A stretch of 64,000 bases of DNA, taken from IMG/VR virus record IMGVR_UViG_2585427757_000006; one strand, given 5' to 3'. Source of the DNA: a virus. Lineage: Duplodnaviria > Heunggongvirae > Uroviricota > Caudoviricetes. The first letter of the stretch is position 1, and every line of letters begins with the position of its first letter. The notes beneath the pieces were generated by a model that had not been told where the DNA came from, did not search any database, and saw nothing but the letters and a program-made list of their open reading frames with translations. Made by a program: the position numbers and the translations under genes. Positions 1 through 48,609 of this stretch are shown here, piece after piece.

Positions 1-1830
<1,830 letters not shown>

Positions 1831-2039
1831 TGACCAATAGCGGACATTAAAAATGGCGAAAAACGGCCAATAATCTTGGCGTTGACAGTGTTACGGGGGA
1901 TAAAATCAGGAGTTGAATAAATACGAAAAAGGAGGCGACACCCCTCCTTCCCTCCCCACTTATACATACCTGGCTTCTTCGCTATACATGTTGTGTTTTA
2001 TCTGTCTCAACCTCTCTATAGGCGTTAATGCTCACTCCT

Positions 2040-2760
2040 TCCAGAACGTTCTATACGGCGACTATTTCTGTTGGTGAATTGGGTGTGTTGTTCTCTCTGT
2101 CGGTGTATGTGGTTTCGTTCGTTTTGCGGTGGTTCTTCTATGGGGTGTTCTCGTCGTTTTGGTGATTGTTCTTCTCCGTGTATGGAGTAATGGCAGGGGG
2201 GCGATTCCTTTCGTTGTTGTGTTTGAGTTGTTTGTCTGGAGTGTGTGAAAGGCTTTTGCAGTTATTCGTGTATTGGGTAATGGCATTTCCCGTGATTGTT
2301 GTGTTTCGTGTCTTTTGGGATTGAGAGAAACCTTGCGGTTACAGGCTTCGTTGGGGTTTCAGTGATTCTGGTGTTCTTCGCTGTTTGGGGAATGGCGTGT
2401 CGTGGGTATCGCGCGTATGAATGTTTTCGGATTGCCTGTGAAAGTTAGGTTGGTTGTCCGGTAGCCTGGGGAGAAGAGGTGGGTCTTTTCGGTAGCCTGG
2501 GGAGAAGAGGTGGGTCTTTTCGGTAGCCTGCCATAAAGAGGTTGGTTGTTTTTGGAAATGGCATTTGTGTTATTTAGTTGTTTTGTTATGCCTGAAAATA
2601 AGTTGTTTATATGGTTGTGTAACGCAACGGGAGCGATTTTGAGCGTGTGTTTTTGTTGGTAGTGTGTTGGGTCGTCTGTGGTGAAAATTGGACGCTGTGG
2701 CGCTGTCTGCTGCGTAGAGTTACGGGTATAAGCAGTGATGTGTGAAAACGTCAATTTTTT
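2040..2760. repeat. GT-skewed degenerate repeat tract, non-coding
   Basis: Plus strand dominated by G and T, recurring units such as ggtaatggca; only low-complexity T/N/Q/P/K-rich ORFs. Confidence 0.5.
2459..2530. repeat. 31-bp direct tandem repeat, about 2.3 copies
   Basis: cggtagcctggggagaagaggtgggtctttt repeated exactly twice, then a partial third copy. Confidence 0.85.
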
Positions 2761-2963
2761 AGACCAAATCGGGTGAAAGCGTTGATGTTTCGTTGATCTG
2801 TTATTCAGTTGTTTTCTTGATTGTATAAACAACTATAGCTTATTGATATTTAAGGATGTGATTGCGGGTATGGAAGAAGAGTAGTGGCGATCAACGGATT
2901 CTTATAGAAAAGAATCAAATTGTGACCGCCATTATCAACTGATTGATTTGTTTACTTGTGTAG

Positions 2964-3362
2964 TCAGTTCTCGAAATGAATAGGGTCAACGTAATGCCGC
3001 TCACCGCTTTTACCATTACACAGCACTGTAACTTTCGCCTTTTCACTCCAGGCTGAGTATAGAAAGTTCCCATCAGGTTGAACATGGTAACGAGAGAAGT
3101 AAACATCGCCGACTGAGGCGTCGAACATGTTCCTATCTTTTTCACTTTGGGCAAGCGAGATGGATATCACCGAATTCCCATTTGGGGAAACGATTTTAAA
3201 TTTATTCCCTATATCCATAACAATATTGTAACCAGGTAATTGCTTGTGTGTTTCCGGATCTATTTTCATGCATCGTGGGTACACGATAGTGTTAGGCTCT
3301 TCAACTGGCGTGGCATTAGCAGAAAGCACAAAAAATATTAGTGCCAATGGTGCATATTTCAT
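2964..3362 (-). CDS. hypothetical secreted protein with N-terminal signal peptide
   Basis: 132-aa ORF, hydrophobic N-terminus MKYAPLALIFFVLSANA. Confidence 0.45.
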   Translation of the reverse strand: MKYAPLALIFFVLSANATPVEEPNTIVYPRCMKIDPETHKQLPGYNIVMDIGNKFKIVSPNGNSVISISLAQSEKDRNMFDASVGDVYFSRYHVQPDGNFLYSAWSEKAKVTVLCNGKSGERHYVDPIHFEN

Positions 3363-3905: not shown

Positions 3906-4011
3906 CTCCTAAACAATTTGTTTTCTTATATGACTTATTATCTCAATCAACAAAAGGTAGAAAACAAATTGTTTTAGAGTTTGTTAAAGTCAGAAGGGGT
4001 TGTGTCTATAT

Positions 4012-4058: not shown

Positions 4059-6092
4059 TTACTTAACCTGGTGGCCAGGTTTAGCACCAGCATCCGGGCT
4101 TAACAGGAAGATATCTTTCCCCCCGGGGCCAGCAGCCATTACCATGCCTTCGGAGATACCAAAGCGCATTTTACGCGGTGCCAGGTTGGCCACCATAATG
4201 GTGTGACGCCCGATCAGTGCCTGCGGATCTGGGTAGGCAGAACGAATACCGGAGAAGACATTGCGTTTTTCACCACCGAGATCCAGCGTCAGGCGAAGCA
4301 GTTTGTCAGAACCTTCTACAAACTCTGCGTTTTCAATCAGCGCCACGCGCAGGTCAACTTTGGCGAAGTCGTCAAAGGTGATAGTTTCCTGAATCGGGTC
4401 GTCAGCCAGTGGGCCAGTTACCGGTGCGGCTGTGGCTTTCACTTCTTCTTTGGATGCTTCCACCAGTGCTTCAACCTGCTTCATATCGATGCGGTTATAC
4501 AGTGCCTTGAACGGATTCACTTTATGGCCCAGCAGCGGTTGCTGGATACCATCCCAGGTCAGTTCTGTATTCAGGAATGCTTCTGCACGTTCAGTCAGTT
4601 TCGGCAGTACCGGTTTCAGGTACGTCATCAGCACGCGGAACAGGTTAATGCCCATAGAGCAAATCGCCTGCAGATCGGCATCGCGTCCTTCCTGCTTTGC
4701 CACCACCCACGGAGCCTGTTCATCAACATAGCGGTTAGCCAGGTCAGCCAGTGCCATGATTTCACGGATAGCTTTGCCAAATTCGCGGCTTTCCCATGCT
4801 TCGCCAATCACTTCAGCGGCATCAGTAAAGGTTTTGTACAGTTGCGGGTCAGCCAGTTCGCTTGCCAGCACGCCGTCAAAACGCTTGTTGATAAAGCCTG
4901 CATTACGGGAGGCCAGGTTAACCACTTTGTTAACGATATCGGCATTCACACGCTGAACGAAATCTTCCAGGTTGAGATCGATATCATCAATGCGCGAAGA
5001 GAGTTTCGCAGTGTAGTAGTAACGCAGGCTGTCGGCGTCAAAATGATTCAGCCAGGTGCTGGCTTTAATAAAGGTGCCGCGAGACTTGGACATCTTCGCG
5101 CCGTTCACCGTCACATAGCCGTGAACAAACAGGTTGGTCGGCTTGCGGAAGTTGCTGCCTTCCAGCATGGCAGGCCAGAACAGGCTGTGGAAGTAAACGA
5201 TATCTTTGCCGATGAAGTGGTACAGCTCGGCGGTGGAGTCTTTCTTCCAGTATTCGTCGAAGCTGGTAGTGTCGCCGCGTTTGTCGCACAGATTCTTGAA
5301 GGAACCCATGTAGCCAATCGGCGCGTCCAGCCAGACGTAGAAGTATTTGCCCGGTGCGTTCGGAATTTCAAAACCGAAGTAAGGTGCGTCACGGGAGATA
5401 TCCCACTGTTGCAGGCCAGATTCAAACCACTCCTGCATTTTGTTTGCCACCTGCTCCTGCAACGCACCGCTGCGGGTCCATGCCTGCAACATTTCGCTGA
5501 AAGAAGGCAGATCAAAGAAGAAGTGTTCGGAATCACGCATTACCGGTGTAGCGCCAGAAACCACTGATTTCGGCTCGATCAGTTCCGTCGGGCTGTATGT
5601 CGCGCCGCAGACTTCACAGTTATCGCCGTATTGATCCGGCGCTTTACATTTCGGGCATGTGCCTTTTACAAAACGGTCCGGCAGGAACATGCCTTTTTCC
5701 GGGTCGTACAGCTGAGAGATGGTGCGGTTTTTAATAAAACCGTTCTCTTTCAGGCGAGTATAGATAAGCTCGGACAACTGACGGTTCTCTTCGCTGTGCG
5801 TCGAGTGATAGTTGTCATAGCTGATGTTAAAGCCTGCGAAATCAGTCTGATGTTCCTGACTCATTTCGCCAATCATCTGTTCCGGTGTGATACCAAGCTG
5901 CTGTGCTTTCAGCATGATTGGCGTACCGTGGGCATCGTCGGCACAGATGAAATTAACCTCGTGGCCGCGCATTCGCTGGTAACGAACCCAGACATCAGCC
6001 TGGATGTGCTCCAGCATATGGCCGAGGTGGATTGAGCCGTTAGCGTACGGCAGCGCGCACGTCACCAGAATTTTCTTCGCGACTTGGGTCAT
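4059..6092 (-). CDS. metG: methionine--tRNA ligase
   Basis: 677-aa product from [40 protein letters not shown] motif, C-terminal tRNA-binding domain; start trimmed from track ORF to the conserved N-terminus. Confidence 0.95.
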
Positions 6093-6249
6093 AGTAGGCA
6101 TTACTTCTTTGTAGTGAAAAGGGGCTTGATAGTAACAAAATGGCCTTATGTCTGCCATGTGATAACAGCATTTCTCATAAATGATTAAATGTCGTAGCTG
6201 GAGTACACTACAAGGCGACAATTGCGCAAATTAAAATAAAGGAGACGGG

Positions 6250-7350
6250 ATGAGCGAGTCCAAATCGCCGGATGCCCTGAGAGCAATGGTAGCCGGTACG
6301 CTGGCTAATTTTCAGCACCCAACCCTGAAACACAACCTGACTACGCTTAAAGCGTTACACCATGTTGCGTTGATGGATGACACACTGCATGTCGAACTAA
6401 TCATGCCTTTCGTGTGGAATAAGCCTTTTGAAGACCTGAAAGAGCAATGTAGTGGTGATCTGCTCCGTATCACTGGCGCAAAGGCTATTGACTGGAAGCT
6501 GTCGTACAACATTGCCACGCTTAAGCGCGTCAAAAACCAACCAGGCATTAATGGCGTTAAGAACATTATCGCCGTCAGCTCAGGCAAGGGCGGCGTGGGT
6601 AAATCCTCCACGGCGGTAAACCTGGCACTGGCGTTGGCTGCTGAAGGTGCGAAAGTTGGTATTTTGGATGCCGATATCTATGGTCCATCAATTCCAACCA
6701 TGCTGGGCGCGGAAAACCAACGTCCAACCTCACCGGACGGTACTCACATGGCACCTATCATGTCTCATGGCCTGGCAACCAACTCTATTGGTTATCTGGT
6801 CACCGACGACAATGCAATGGTGTGGCGTGGACCGATGGCCAGCAAGGCGCTGATGCAGATGTTGCAGGAAACACTGTGGCCTGATCTGGACTATCTCGTT
6901 CTCGATATGCCACCGGGCACTGGTGATATTCAATTGACGCTGGCGCAGAACATTCCTGTAACTGGTGCGGTTGTGGTAACTACGCCGCAAGACATCGCGC
7001 TGATCGATGCGAAGAAAGGCATTGTGATGTTCGAAAAAGTCGAAGTGCCGGTACTGGGTATCGTTGAAAACATGAGTGTGCATATTTGCAGTAACTGCGG
7101 TCATCACGAGCCAATTTTTGGCACCGGTGGCGCACAGAAACTGGCCGAGAAATACAACACGCAGTTGTTAGGCCAAATGCCACTTCATATCTCTCTTCGT
7201 GAAGATCTGGATAACGGAACACCAACCGTTATTAGTCGTCCAGATAGTGAATTTACGGCTATTTATCGTGACCTCGCAGATCGCGTTGCTGCCCAAATGT
7301 ATTGGCAAGGTGAAGTAATACCTGGCGAAATCGCATTCCGCGCAGTGTGA
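6250..7350 (+). CDS. apbC: Fe-S cluster carrier ATPase ApbC/Mrp
   Basis: P-loop [16 protein letters not shown], CxxC motif CSNCGH, SD ggaga upstream; divergent from metG as in enterobacterial chromosomes. Confidence 0.93.
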
Positions 7351-7357
7351 TAAAAAG

Positions 7358-7486
7358 GTGGTGCTTTTGCCGTTACGCACCCCCCCGTCAGTAGCTGAAC
7401 AGGAGGGACAGCTGATAGAAACAGAAGCCACTGGAGCACCTCAAAAACACCATCATACACTAAATCAGTAAGTTGGCAGCATCACC
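7358..7486 (-). mobile_element. IS1 left-end remnant (inverted repeat plus first about 24 codons of insA), internally truncated
   Basis: Reverse complement reads ggtgatgctgccaacttactgatttagtgtatgatggtg, the IS1 terminal repeat; encoded [24 protein letters not shown] then breaks into apbC 3-prime flank. Confidence 0.8.
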
Positions 7487-7648
7487 GAGCGCCAGCGGCG
7501 AACATATGAGCTTCGGAAATACTAGACATTCTTAACTCCGTTGTTTTCTAGTTGTGGTTATTTTCACAAATAAGAAAAGATAGAAAACAATTTATTTAAG
7601 GCCACAACTTATGGCCTTTATTTATTCATGCCGAAGGATTTGTAGCGT

Positions 7649-11188: not shown

Positions 11189-11327
11189 GTGTTTTCCTTA
11201 ATGCTTAAACAAGTTGTTTTCTTATTGGTTTTATTGTGATGTGGCATAAAAGGGGAGCAAGCTAAACGTAAAGGTGCAAACTCTCTATTTCGGTCAACGA
11301 AACACAAGGGCCATTTGGCCCTTGTCA

Positions 11328-30140: not shown

Positions 30141-30365
30141 TTATTCACATATCCACAGGATAGATCCTAATAAAGAGATCCATAGATAGATCCTTATATA
30201 GATCAAATAAGATCCCCGATCGCTGTAAGCCGCGCCACGACTGGTCTGAAGTCATGTTCATGTATGCTGTCAGCGGTAATTGATAGTCTGTCAGCGGTTC
30301 ACCGTATGCTGCCAACTGTTTTTGGTATTCTGTCAGCGGCAAATCAAGTATGCTGTCAGCGGTTG
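30141..30365 (+). promoter_or_regulatory. plasmid replication origin (oriR-like): DnaA-box-like 9-mers, GATC cluster, five iterons
   Basis: ttattcaca and atatccaca 9-mers; six GATC within 30160-30222 in agatcc heptamers; five copies of atgctgtcagcggt-like iteron up to the repA SD. Confidence 0.75.
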
Positions 30366-30383
30366 AATGACAAAGGTGTCCAC

Positions 30384-31478
30384 ATGTCCACAAAAAATAA
30401 AAAAGGTAAAAATAACAAAGAAGTAGAAGATAACATCGACAACTTTGAAGAAGGTTCCCTTGAATTGTACACAGGGGAACTTGTCCCTAATAGCAACAAT
30501 ACAGTCCAACCAATTGCGTTGATGCGACTGGGGTTGTTCGTCCCCACGCTTAAGGGAACAAAATACAGTAAACGTAACAAGCCAAATGAGATCGATGCTT
30601 CAAAGGAGCTTGTCCAGCTCGAAGTAGCCCGTTCTGAAGGCTATTCCGATATCAAGATAACCGGTCCTCGTCTCGACATGGATCATGATTTCAAAACGTG
30701 GGTGGGCGTTGTGCGTTCGCTGGCAGAATACGGCGAACCTAACGGTCGTGTCGAGTTAAGCATCACGAAATTTGCGAAGTTTTGTGGCTATCCATCGTCA
30801 CAGATCCGCAAAACACTCCGCGACCGGCTTACAAACAGTCTTTTGAAGATCATGCGTACAACTCTGTCTTTCCAGAGAACGTATGAAGAAAAGAACGTCG
30901 ACGGCTCTAACAAGATCTCGCTTCTGATGGTGCACCTCATCAATAGCGTGGACTACAACGAGCAGAAAGATACGGTGGTGTTCTATGCAGAACCGAAGCT
31001 GGCCGAACTATATCGCTTTGACCATAAGGTTCTTTTGCAGTTAAAGGTTATCAATAAGCTACCACGCAAAGAAACAGCACAGGCTCTGTACACCTTCATC
31101 GAAAGTCTTCCAACCAAGCCTGCGCCGGTATCGCTTGCTCGATTGCGTGCGCGACTCAATTTGAGTAGCAGGAATGTCAGCTCGCAGAATCAGACTATAC
31201 GTAACGGCTTAAAAGCTCTCCAAGATTTGGGCTATCTCGAATACAGCGAGATTAAGCGTGGGCGGTCGATCTATATCCAGATTCACAGCCGCAATCCAAA
31301 ACTCAAAGTCGCACCGCCAAAACCTGAAGACATCGAACCCAAAAAACCAGATGAGAAAGCCGGGGAAATTGATGCCAAACAGAACATTATCAATAAGATA
31401 ACCGAACTTTCGCAGAATTTGACGCCTGAAAATATCAAGATGATTGAGATCCTTTCCAATAGTCTCAAACTGCTTTGA
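30384..31478 (+). CDS. repA: iteron-binding replication initiator RepA (P1/RepFIB-like)
   Basis: NSNNTVQPIALMRLGLFVP, GYSDIKITGPRLDMDHDFKTW, YTFIESLP, HSRNPKLK resemble P1-type RepA; start set at MSTKN with SD aggtg; track ORF 5-prime part is read-through of iterons. Confidence 0.85.
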   Translation: MSTKNKKGKNNKEVEDNIDNFEEGSLELYTGELVPNSNNTVQPIALMRLGLFVPTLKGTKYSKRNKPNEIDASKELVQLEVARSEGYSDIKITGPRLDMDHDFKTWVGVVRSLAEYGEPNGRVELSITKFAKFCGYPSSQIRKTLRDRLTNSLLKIMRTTLSFQRTYEEKNVDGSNKISLLMVHLINSVDYNEQKDTVVFYAEPKLAELYRFDHKVLLQLKVINKLPRKETAQALYTFIESLPTKPAPVSLARLRARLNLSSRNVSSQNQTIRNGLKALQDLGYLEYSEIKRGRSIYIQIHSRNPKLKVAPPKPEDIEPKKPDEKAGEIDAKQNIINKITELSQNLTPENIKMIEILSNSLKLL

Positions 31479-32010
31479 TATGCTGTCAGCGGTGAAATGT
31501 ATGCTATCAGCGGCTATTTTTCTGAAAAGTATGCTGTGAACGGTTAAAGATATGCTACCAGCGGTATAGTGAGATGAACGTATGCTGTGAGCGGTAAATC
31601 ATCTATCACCACTCAATGCTCTGCCATACCTCCCCAGTGGTTACTAACCTCGAAGAGTGCATTCCATATAGGTTTGCGCTCACTAACATTCTATTGCTAT
31701 TGCGCTGATTGCTTGTAGTGAAAGGCATTTATTGCCTGCTACTCCCTGATAGAATGTATGCTGTCAGCGGTGTTTTATTGAGGAATTTTTGTTTGGATAT
31801 GCTATCAGCGGTAATTAATGGTATATGTCAGACCTTCGTATGCTGCCAGCGGTAATTTTGTTCTGGTTATACCCATACCGGGACACATTATTCATGCAAT
31901 GTCTTAAGTATGCTGTCAGCGGTAAAAAATCGAGTAAAGTATGCTGTGAGCGGTGAGATAGACTCTCGATATGCTATCAGCGGTAGTTGATTGTGTATGC
32001 TGTCAGCGGT
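31478..32010 (+). repeat. incA-like iteron array downstream of repA, about 12 copies in two clusters
   Basis: Repeated tatgctgtcagcggt and variants (gctatcagcgg, gctgtgagcgg, gctgccagcgg) with a 150-bp spacer. Confidence 0.85.
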
Positions 32011-32057
32011 GACGACTATGAAATATGACTGCGGAACGTGCCGCAGTCAGTTTGCAT

Positions 32058-33159: not shown

Positions 33160-36994
<3,835 letters not shown>

Positions 36995-48561: not shown

Positions 48562-48609
48562 TTCTAAGACTCACTAAACAAATTGTTTTCTTATCTTATA
48601 AATTAATTC

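Follow-up and report, generated by a model that had tools for sequence, protein, structure and literature searches.

A conserved gene-free module of SSU5/pHCM2-type phage-plasmids in which one strand keeps its base composition

Why would a phage-plasmid keep about 1 kb of DNA that carries no gene and whose two strands differ sharply in base composition? The locus that raises this question lies near the left end of the IMG/VR virus record IMGVR_UViG_2585427757_000006 (Caudoviricetes), of which a stretch of 64,000 nucleotides, called the window below, was analyzed. The window is a piece of an SSU5/pHCM2-type phage-plasmid. Its top match is the E. coli plasmid NZ_CP080257.1 (99.6% identity), and further phage matches are Cyrano, CMS-2020a, PhiR41_1, and SSU5. 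Clinical E. coli, Klebsiella, Salmonella, and Enterobacter commonly harbor phage-plasmids of this type, which are carriers of resistance and accessory genes. An earlier note, made from the letters of the window, had described a GT-rich, C-depleted repeat tract at 2040–2760 between an IS21-family insertion sequence (IS) and the first genes of the element. It had offered a gene remnant, a recombination hotspot, and a binding array as explanations. The minus strand is the sense strand for nearly all genes of the phage-plasmid, and the cargo gene upstream of the tract reads into it on that strand. Coordinates of the features are collected in Table 1, and related loci are cited by their L numbers.

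The tract is the core of a conserved gene-free module

The plus strand of 2040–2760 contains 15.1% A, 12.9% C, 33.3% G, and 38.7% T, compared to 23.9% C window-wide. The G+T content of this strand is 72–74% over 1960–2930, ~7 standard deviations (s.d.) above the window mean, and the G+C content of the tract is 45%. The G+T fraction per 500 nt peaks at 0.742 at position 2069 (window mean 0.504, s.d. 0.035), and no other 500-nt segment of the 64 kb exceeds 0.66. In NZ_CP022167.1, an intact relative of 113 kb, the maximum is 0.746, again in the tract, and nothing outside it exceeds 0.606. A GC skew of +0.43 to +0.58 and an AT skew of -0.3 to -0.6 run from ~2000 to 2900. The zone is therefore somewhat wider than first stated, ~1960–2930, and over this extent the composition and skew plots bear out the strand asymmetry described in the earlier note. 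Nothing prominent was found in the tract at periods of 3, 10.5, 31, 45, and 90 nt, and a scan of genome contigs with a 15-base pattern returned chance matches only, in unrelated phyla.

A distant BLAST search found the tract in 839 PLSDB plasmids and in 13 phage records, the latter all SSU5-like. The plasmid carriers are Klebsiella (431), Escherichia (224), Enterobacter (90), Salmonella (49), Citrobacter (25), Cronobacter (9), and others. The E. coli type is colinear with the pHCM2, Enterobacter, Citrobacter, and Klebsiella types over window positions 1888–2950 at 67–70% identity, and the genes flanking the module differ between types. In an alignment of the A/C-rich body of the tract from nine sequences in five genera, 279 of 719 columns (39%) are invariant. 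Megablast with the phage SSU5 itself retrieves only the most conserved 170 nt of the body (Table 1). The tract is the core of a conserved ~1-kb gene-free module of SSU5/pHCM2-type phage-plasmids, and the island of ~1–1.5 kb in which it lies is the largest conserved gene-free region of these elements. A search of Rfam with the window, L002, and L003 returned no family (best E-values 0.37–3.2, far below gathering scores), and the literature searched contains no description of the tract region. The non-coding module is widespread, strongly constrained, and, inconsistent calls of small open reading frames aside, unannotated in the records examined.

The module was checked for protein-coding potential. 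There is no conserved reading frame on either strand; open stretches shift frame and position in every lineage, and indels of 1–2 nt, not multiples of three, fall within conserved blocks. One open reading frame (ORF) of the window here (2359–2832, minus strand, TTG start), for example, has 157 amino acids (aa). Stop-free stretches of this kind result solely from the scarcity of T and G on the minus strand. Annotators leave the tract blank or call short ORFs on strands that are inconsistent between records. The statement that the tract has no credible ORF is therefore upheld by the shifting open stretches and the frame-breaking indels. Small hydrophobic plus-strand ORFs starting from a conserved core ATG (GGGTAATGGC) were considered and rejected; neither their frames nor their stops are conserved, with the Klebsiella type as an example.

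A decayed repeat-containing protein gene, or neutral junk beside the IS, would account for the long minus-strand stop-free stretches and for the hypothetical protein that some records annotate. This origin is extremely improbable. The open frames differ per lineage, records place their ORFs on different strands, and the module is IS-free in intact elements. The gene-remnant idea of the earlier note was abandoned on these grounds, the region being colinear and conserved in length across five genera with no consistent annotated gene.

Base composition is constrained on one strand

On the minus strand, A and C together make up 75% of the invariant columns of the body and still 64% of the 440 variable ones (60–72% per lineage). 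The commonest difference between body sequences is an exchange of A and C. The base composition of one strand is kept where the sequence is not. An A/C bias at variable positions points to an RNA or a single-stranded DNA form. Proteins that read double-stranded DNA need no such bias, and a constraint on a single strand is therefore favored. Whichever function is assigned to it, the module is a clean, testable case of selection on single-strand base composition.

The predicted properties of the minus-sense RNA are unusual. Its 200-nt segments fold at -14.5 to -23.7 kcal/mol, compared to -49.9 ± 9.6 kcal/mol window-wide, and the two weakest-folding of 639 such segments lie in the tract in the minus sense. 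The 761-nt minus-sense body as a whole folds at -111.8 kcal/mol. The plus-sense RNA of the tract folds ordinarily (-42 to -56 kcal/mol). Minus-sense start codons occur at 10.5 per kb versus 54.2 ± 10.4, and a Shine-Dalgarno sequence combined with a start codon is absent from the minus-sense tract. Over 801 nt, the minus-sense body has 31.3% C and 14.2% G, a C:G ratio of ~2.2. Minus-sense 100-nt segments that resemble Rho utilization (rut) sites (C at least twice G and at least 28%) number 103 in the 64 kb, and 59 of them are within the tract. A rut region takes at least ~80 nt of RNA in which C is well in excess of G, and in this respect, in low structure, and in lack of translation, the tract agrees with one.

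Motifs expected of other single-stranded functions were counted on the same RNA. GGA motifs are not enriched (6 versus 6.3 ± 2.4 expected), unlike in a CsrB/RsmZ-type sponge, and Hfq A-R-N runs are not enriched either (4 versus 5.0 expected). A ToxI-like type III antitoxin array was rejected; there are two or three units only, and no ORF follows them on either strand. Pairing of the 31-nt repeat units with the polypurine block at the 3' end of the tract was also rejected, being equal to that of composition controls.

The sense strand is nearly silent in a lysogen

The Cyrano phage-plasmid of E. coli LF82 carries the tract at 93.5% identity, and its annotation includes a spurious ORF call, CYRAN_103, inside the tract on the minus-sense strand. 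Published counts for this element are gene-level and minus-sense only, and come from lysogeny broth (LB) and macrophage samples in which the lytic cycle is at most partly induced. CYRAN_103 has a log2(FPKM+5) of 2.32 in both LB replicates, which equals 0 fragments per kilobase per million (FPKM) (PMC9928086, S1 Table). Its maximum in any condition, reached in macrophage samples, is a log2 of 4.27 (≤14 FPKM), where the capsid gene rises to a log2 of 7.4–7.8 (~160–220 FPKM) (PMC9928086). The adjacent upstream gene CYRAN_102, the Cyrano occupant of the cargo slot, stands at 57 FPKM in LB, rises in macrophages, and has log2 values of up to 9.2, and the downstream genes CYRAN_105 and CYRAN_107 reach a log2 of ~7 (PMC9928086). 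The value of 0 FPKM between expressed genes indicates that the sense strand of the tract is nearly silent in the lysogen.

Potential transcription signals bracket the tract. The almost invariant boundary block that directly follows the cargo gene contains an inverted repeat, TGGCGGTCA (2931–2923) and TGATCGCCA (2893–2885), around TTTCTATAAGA (2910–2900). The 9-bp stem is present in 9 of 9 sequences. No covariation was seen among the 9 sequences in the stem of 2884–2938; the stem is invariant and the check therefore uninformative. This block is probably the terminator of the cargo gene or an operator. Farther along the minus strand, the block at 2724–2760 contains TTGACG (2754–2749), an 18-nt spacer, and TATACC (2730–2725), which together form a weak promoter-like site. 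The same block presents a short hairpin plus a T-run on the plus strand. At the far end of the body, the polypurine run and hairpin at 1924–1959 read as an intrinsic terminator for leftward (minus-sense) transcription. The hairpin, with one purine and one pyrimidine arm, is found in 24 of 24 distinct variants, and its U-tail is weak in the pHCM2 type.

A Rho-loading stop is the tentatively favored reading

Untranslated, unstructured, C-rich, and G-poor RNA is the textbook substrate for Rho loading. The sense orientation of the tract, its C-rich and G-poor composition, its lack of structure, its untranslatability, and the loss of RNA across it therefore place a Rho stop first among the readings considered. 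The tract may be a long Rho-loading, untranslatable transcription stop that serves as an insulator or attenuator, a reading that is possible rather than probable and is held tentatively. Its working form is proposed to be the minus strand. RNA polymerase would enter either from the lysogeny-expressed upstream cargo gene or from the module's own weak promoter-like site. The resulting transcript would consist almost only of A and C and would be unfoldable, nearly free of start codons, and C-rich and G-poor over ~760 nt. Rho would load on this RNA and the tract would act as a long stop. The rest of the island and the early genes beyond it would then stay free of read-through, whatever cargo gene lies upstream. 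The tract is closed by a terminator-like hairpin on the same strand as the upstream gene, which has this orientation in 11 of 11 loci. A sequence-independent stop would render cargo swapping safe, and an insulator would explain how varied cargo is swapped beside early lytic genes without switching them on. We infer both Rho as the agent and insulation as the purpose from a tract that is conserved, constrained in the composition of one strand, devoid of structure and translation signals, rut-like in composition, and without sense RNA in the lysogen.

Among the known systems compared, the tract would work most like a rut region; in layout it is similar to iteron origins, and in composition to sponge RNAs. 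With the rut regions of lambda (tR1, rutA/rutB around nutR) it shares a position behind an expressed gene and a sense-strand RNA that is C-rich and G-poor, lacks structure, and is not translated. As with tR1, it lies in a temperate phage at the boundary of gene sets, and RNA is lost across it. The tract differs in its length of ~760 nt, about ten times that of a typical rut, and in its motif families and bracketing hairpins. Its resemblance to boxA (CTCTTATA versus GCTCTTA) is weak.

Several observations weigh against a Rho stop. A rut region needs no conserved sequence, yet the body is 39% invariant. The GCCATTAC cores, the 31-nt units phased at three helical turns, and the five CGTTGA sites described below are left unexplained. 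A zone of this kind follows none of the element's other cargo genes. The RNA falls to 0 FPKM within ~200 nt of the stop codon of the cargo gene, and the hairpin block at 2884–2938 or RNA instability could explain this drop without Rho. Intrinsic-terminator-like hairpins already flank the tract. The gene-level counts, finally, are of the minus-sense strand.

RNAs acting in trans or from the plus strand

The same composition would suit a different function, in which the tract makes a trans-acting, structure-free, A/C-rich lytic RNA that acts as a decoy or sponge for the GcvB seed, Hfq, or a FljA/Hfq-like protein. The GcvB seed is GU-rich, and GcvB is the target of the prophage anti-sRNA AgvB. 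One strand of the module combines a promoter-like site with a leader box and a terminator-like hairpin, and the 5' leaders of element genes share the A/C-rich AAGAAAACAA style. CACAACA occurs 3 times versus 0.83 expected. The tract is complementary by composition to the R1 region of GcvB, with a mean duplex energy of -21.7 kcal/mol versus a window mean of -17.8 kcal/mol. This pairing equals that of dinucleotide shuffles, both in the minimum (-29.3 versus -30.3 ± 2.5) and in the mean (-21.7 versus -22.0 ± 0.65); the gcvB sequence used was verified at the gcvA locus. A sponge RNA from this tract is unlikely. The RNA does not register in the lysogen (0 FPKM) and stays at ≤14 FPKM with the capsid gene induced to ~160–220 FPKM, A-R-N runs and GGA motifs are not enriched, and Rfam returned no match.

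The element encodes a PF03614 (FljA) protein (E = 1.5e-84), which would offer a partner for such an RNA. The FljA family binds the fliC mRNA leader (PMC2652032). Compared with the fliC 5' leader, the tract scores as shuffled sequence does (18–21 versus 19 ± 2.4). Mimicry of the fliC leader for the FljA-like protein was accordingly rejected, the common 9-mers (ACCCAATAC, ATCAACGA) being within chance.

Known sponges (AgvB and SroC against GcvB, CsrB, and CrcZ of Pseudomonas) share with the tract repeated short motifs on a non-coding strand and a terminator-like 3' end, and the tract is mobile-element A/C-rich sequence of the kind that GcvB targets. The tract differs from them in that its RNA is not abundant where measured and in that its complementarity and motifs do not exceed those given by composition. 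It is also ten times longer than AgvB or SroC. By the computable measures, the tract agrees with a rut region and does not agree with a sponge.

The published counts concern the minus-sense strand, and a GU-rich plus-strand RNA, antisense to the element genes and ending at the hairpin and T-run of ~2724–2760, was considered as well. Such an RNA may form R-loops because it would be G-rich on a C-rich template, and the positive GC skew of 0.4–0.6 favors R-loops if the plus strand is the sense strand. The block at 2724–2760 forms a 6-bp hairpin followed by T5–6 on the plus strand, and lineage changes keep its pairs through G-U wobbles (TGATGT versus TGGCGT against ACGTCA). A small plus-strand gene aims into the island in the pHCM2, SSU5, Enterobacter, and Citrobacter types. 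This transcript is quite unlikely. No conserved plus-strand promoter was found, plus-sense folding is no better than that of shuffles (z = +0.42), and the hairpin is weak; in the Klebsiella and Shigella-plasmid variants it is also imperfect. Terminator-like matches are near chance on this T-rich strand (4 versus 2.8 ± 1.6).

Repeats, the iteron-like array, and a possible lytic origin

The Rho stop favored above leaves the repeats of the module to be explained. Tandem Repeats Finder returned the exact 31-bp repeat of the earlier note at 2459–2530 (period 31, 2.3 copies, 100% matches, score 144), or 2.8 copies at 89% when extended to 2546. The 31-nt unit is kept in all lineages at a spacing of three helical turns. 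Phased copies number two in 67 of 76 related loci and three in the other 9, which agrees with the predicted length polymorphism, and in most E. coli plasmids a 31-bp gap opens in the alignment to the window. Because the unit is conserved everywhere, mostly in two copies, and this gap is present in most E. coli plasmids, the exact 31-bp copy is, judged from the alignments, a recent slippage duplication of one conserved unit with no function in its own right. A diverged set of 31-nt-type units lies in a second intergenic gap of the phage-plasmid. The unit in this second gap (L005:60–260; L002:5400–5470, minus strand) comes after a terminator hairpin, which in the Klebsiella type holds a Chi sequence (GCTGGTGG).

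The recurring GGTAATGGC-like cores were also recovered. G(G/T/A)AATGGC occurs on the plus strand at 2187, 2277, 2389, and 2555, with spacings of 90, 112, and 166 nt and flanking similarity of 20–25 nt. Read on the minus strand, four to six GCCATTAC cores are present in tract bodies, without helical phasing, and the tract contains five CGTTGA sites. In the pHCM2 and Klebsiella types, no 40-mer of the island is richer in AT than that of the conserved AT-rich block (Table 1). A conserved 40-mer of 80% AT lies inside the tract.

In intact relatives, the non-coding island extends ~450 bp past the end of the hairpin at 1924–1959. This extension contains 5–6 direct repeats of GGGAAA(A/C)GGCTGG on the minus strand, spaced 21–22 or 31–32 bp (GGGAAAAGGCTGG array). 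The array has iteron geometry and lies 40–100 bp past the terminator-like hairpin in every intact relative (L002:7700–7950, which is 84.7–85.0 kb of NZ_CP022167.1; L003:2195–2330; L011:2380–2440). The Cyrano annotation places a spurious ORF, CYRAN_104, over it. The window is without the array, which was severed by the IS21 insertion left of 1888.

These repeats raise the possibility that the tract is part of a cis-acting DNA island, most plausibly a lytic replication origin or another protein-binding array. The motifs would bind element-encoded proteins, and the asymmetry would reflect strand-specific loading of single-stranded DNA or a plus strand that is often single-stranded. This reading is possible but carries rather little weight. 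The island is unique in the genome, non-coding, and conserved, with variable genes on its flanks, and it holds several direct-repeat families, among them the 31-nt units at three helical turns, the 5–6 iteron-geometry copies beyond the left end of the tract in intact relatives, and the conserved 80% AT 40-mer. The sense strand is nearly untranscribed even with the late genes partly induced. The element has its own DnaB-like helicase, primase, Pol III alpha, ligase, and RNase HI. Mapping of the lysis-lysogeny control or of the lytic origin of this group was not found in the literature searched, a search that was not exhaustive. The IS insertions at the junction of tract and array, described below, occur in visibly phage-degraded plasmids.

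Other features do not fit an origin. Binding by proteins to double-stranded DNA would not account for an A/C bias where positions are not conserved. The tract, at 45% G+C, is not an AT-rich unwinding element, and neither DnaA boxes nor IHF sites are consistent across lineages. A search of the 10 proteins encoded on either side of the island in L002 found no initiator-like domain, and the replication genes of the phage-plasmid are tens of kb from the tract. The cumulative skew shows no origin-like turning point besides the tract's own jump; with nearly every gene on one strand, the curve is monotonic. The GCCATTAC cores lack helical phasing, and the tract itself has two or three 31-nt units. 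Of the binding array proposed in the earlier note, the repeated motif families (31-nt units and GCCATTAC cores) stand, and the A/C bias at non-conserved positions is left unexplained by it.

The layout resembles iteron origins and control arrays (lambda ori, P1 incA, and the element's own RepA iterons) in being a non-coding island with several direct-repeat families. The repeat spacing of two families, 31 bp for the units of the tract and 22 bp for the array of the relatives, corresponds to whole helical turns. In lambda ori as well, a strongly strand-asymmetric segment adjoins the repeats, although the asymmetric segment here is ~800 bp at 45% G+C rather than ~40 bp of A/T. Unlike iteron origins, the tract has no adjacent initiator gene and no consistent DnaA boxes, and it is unrelated to the RepA iterons. 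The latter were located separately. A Rep3-family repA (Rep3_N) occupies 30264–31478, and 11 iterons of 21 bp directly downstream (31478–32015), of the form (G/A)TATGCT(G/A)TCAGCGGT, are the plasmid-mode origin and control array. A RepA iteron or handcuffing array at the tract was rejected, the Rep3 initiator and its 11 TATGCTGTCAGCGGT iterons at 30.2–32.0 kb being unrelated to it. A second transposase fragment (rve integrase core, IS3-like; 33276–33962, minus strand) lies near the RepA iterons.

A further version joins the single-strand constraint to the array. An "A/C-alphabet" single-strand zone of ~800 nt, with recognition motifs embedded in it, and the 22-bp-phased array would together form a lytic replication or regulatory center, a kind of cis element that has not been described. 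This is rather improbable. In one form of it, the structure-free strand would load the element's helicase, primase, or a FljA/Hfq-like RNA-binding protein. If the module is a lytic origin or control center, it gives a handle to tell active phages from domesticated plasmids, including IS-disrupted copies, and edge IS insertions such as that in the window would uncouple the plasmid and phage lifestyles. The transcription stop and the origin views are compatible, as a stop could protect an origin-like array.

Gene replacement and insertion sequences at the flanks

The cargo slot upstream of the tract holds at least seven unrelated genes among 11 loci, encoding proteins of 61–399 aa. In each of the 11 (window; L001, L003–L005, L007–L011, L081), the occupant lies on the minus strand and reads into the tract, and the slot qualifies as a hot spot of gene replacement.

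RecA prefers GT-rich DNA, and RecA- and Chi-type recombination favor GT-rich single strands. A recombination hot spot, in which the GT-rich strand promotes the exchange of cargo genes between phage-plasmids, would fit the variety of the adjoining slot and the transfer of a 760-bp piece of the tract to large Klebsiella IncFIB/HI1B plasmids at 93–95% identity. This function is very unlikely for the tract. The tract contains no Chi site, exchange has no need of 39% invariant columns or of ordered motif blocks, and the variable genes lie beyond the non-skewed boundary block, outside the tract. Of the recombination hotspot of the earlier note, the gene replacement at the flank stands, and the A/C bias at non-conserved positions of the tract is left unexplained by it. 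The transferred piece is of the Klebsiella type (L006:3717–4462, L012:3718–4475) and lies inside a 3-kb gene-free gap of the IncFIB/IncHI1B plasmids, between a diguanylate cyclase gene and a DUF262/type I restriction-modification island.

Repeated promoter cassettes mediate gene shuffling in the hyperplastic regions of T4-like phages. The module resembles these promoter/stem-loop (PeSL) cassettes in lying among small accessory genes with a near-identical promoter and leader cassette (TTGCGATAATAACACC..AAGAAAACA), in holding two leader-box copies and a unit that recurs in another intergenic gap, and in adjoining a site of gene replacement. It differs in being a 1-kb gene-free skewed block rather than a set of ~50-nt cassettes between genes. 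The AAGAAAACAA box, which in the module belongs to a leader-like stretch after the boundary block, is also found in the 5' leaders of neighboring small genes. Many small minus-strand genes share the near-identical promoter and leader cassette (TTGCGATAATAACACCAnnAAGAAAACAnnTTGTT), with sites at 3919–3927, 11215–11223, and 48584–48592 of the window and at L002:5290–5345 and 7440–7495.

The other flank is the site of IS insertions. The IS21-family neighbor named in the earlier note was confirmed by the IstA (rve) and IstB_IS21 domains, with the element ending at 1887. Phage-plasmid homology begins directly after it, at 1888. The right end of the IS cuts the non-coding island, and intact relatives have no IS at the site. 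The junction of the tract with the iteron-like array has been hit three times independently, each time within ~25 bp: by IS21-family elements in the window (1887/1888) and, in the opposite orientation, in L009 (388–2499, IS100), and by IS26 in L008 (1731–2500). Of the three host phage-plasmids, two show visible degradation, one being a 52-kb deletion derivative and the other a 170-kb IS26 cointegrate.

Features of the locus and neighboring genes

Table 1 Features of the module and its flanks in the window (minus-strand features are listed in the direction of minus-sense reading).
Feature	Position	Strand	Remarks
Variable cargo slot	2964–3362	-	Here a 132-aa protein; N terminus signal-peptide-like
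Boundary block, 55 nt, almost invariant	2884–2938	-	Directly after the cargo gene stop codon
Two TCAACG sites 11 nt apart and AAGAAAACAA box	2780–2818	-	Sites 2780–2786 and 2791–2797; box 2809–2818
Invariant block AAAAA(G/A)TTGACGTTTT..CTTATACC	2724–2760	-	Alignment of relatives
A/C-rich, G/U-poor body	1960–2720	-	A 39%, C 31%, G 14%, T 15.5%
Conserved AT-rich block (CGCTCCCGTTGCGTTA .. TAAACAAnTTnTTTT .. AAAACAA)	2577–2640	-	Alignment
GCCATTTC core copy 4	2555–2562	-	Motif scan
Three 31-nt units, [CAGGCTACCGA-N4-ACC(C/A)ACCTC-N7]	2459–2551	-	Two identical (2459–2520), third 74% identical
GCCATTCC core copy 3	2389–2396	-	Motif scan
GCCATTAC core copy 2	2277–2284	-	Motif scan
GCCATTAC core copy 1	2187–2194	-	Long form GCCATTACTCCATACACGGAGAAGAAC
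Most conserved 170 nt of body	2045–2215	-	Repeated AGAAGAAC elements and core copy 1
Lineage-specific segment, main E. coli type	1966–2044	-	Unalignable to pHCM2, Enterobacter, and Klebsiella types
Polypurine run GTGGGGAGGGAAGGAGGGG, then hairpin and U-run	1924–1959	-	Terminator scan of window, L002, and L011
Conserved module tail (..CGTATTTATTCAA..TTTTATCCCCCGTAAC)	1888–1923	-	Alignments; three IS insertions within ~25 bp
IS21-family insertion sequence	1–1887	+	IstA 17–1036, IstB 1033–1830; Pfam rve/Mu-transpos_C_2 and IstB_IS21

Two further genes lie ~1–4 kb from the tract, a full-length methionyl-tRNA synthetase gene (4059–6221, minus strand) and a gene for an ApbC/Mrp-type iron-sulfur carrier ATPase (6250–7350, plus strand). 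The FljA-family protein is encoded beyond the window. It is full length in L002:1886–2410 (plus strand), corresponds to CYRAN_114, and matches PF03614 (E = 1.5e-84), the repressor of phase-1 flagellin, with a weak Hfq-like match in addition. As a candidate, it may be a post-transcriptional repressor of host flagellin.

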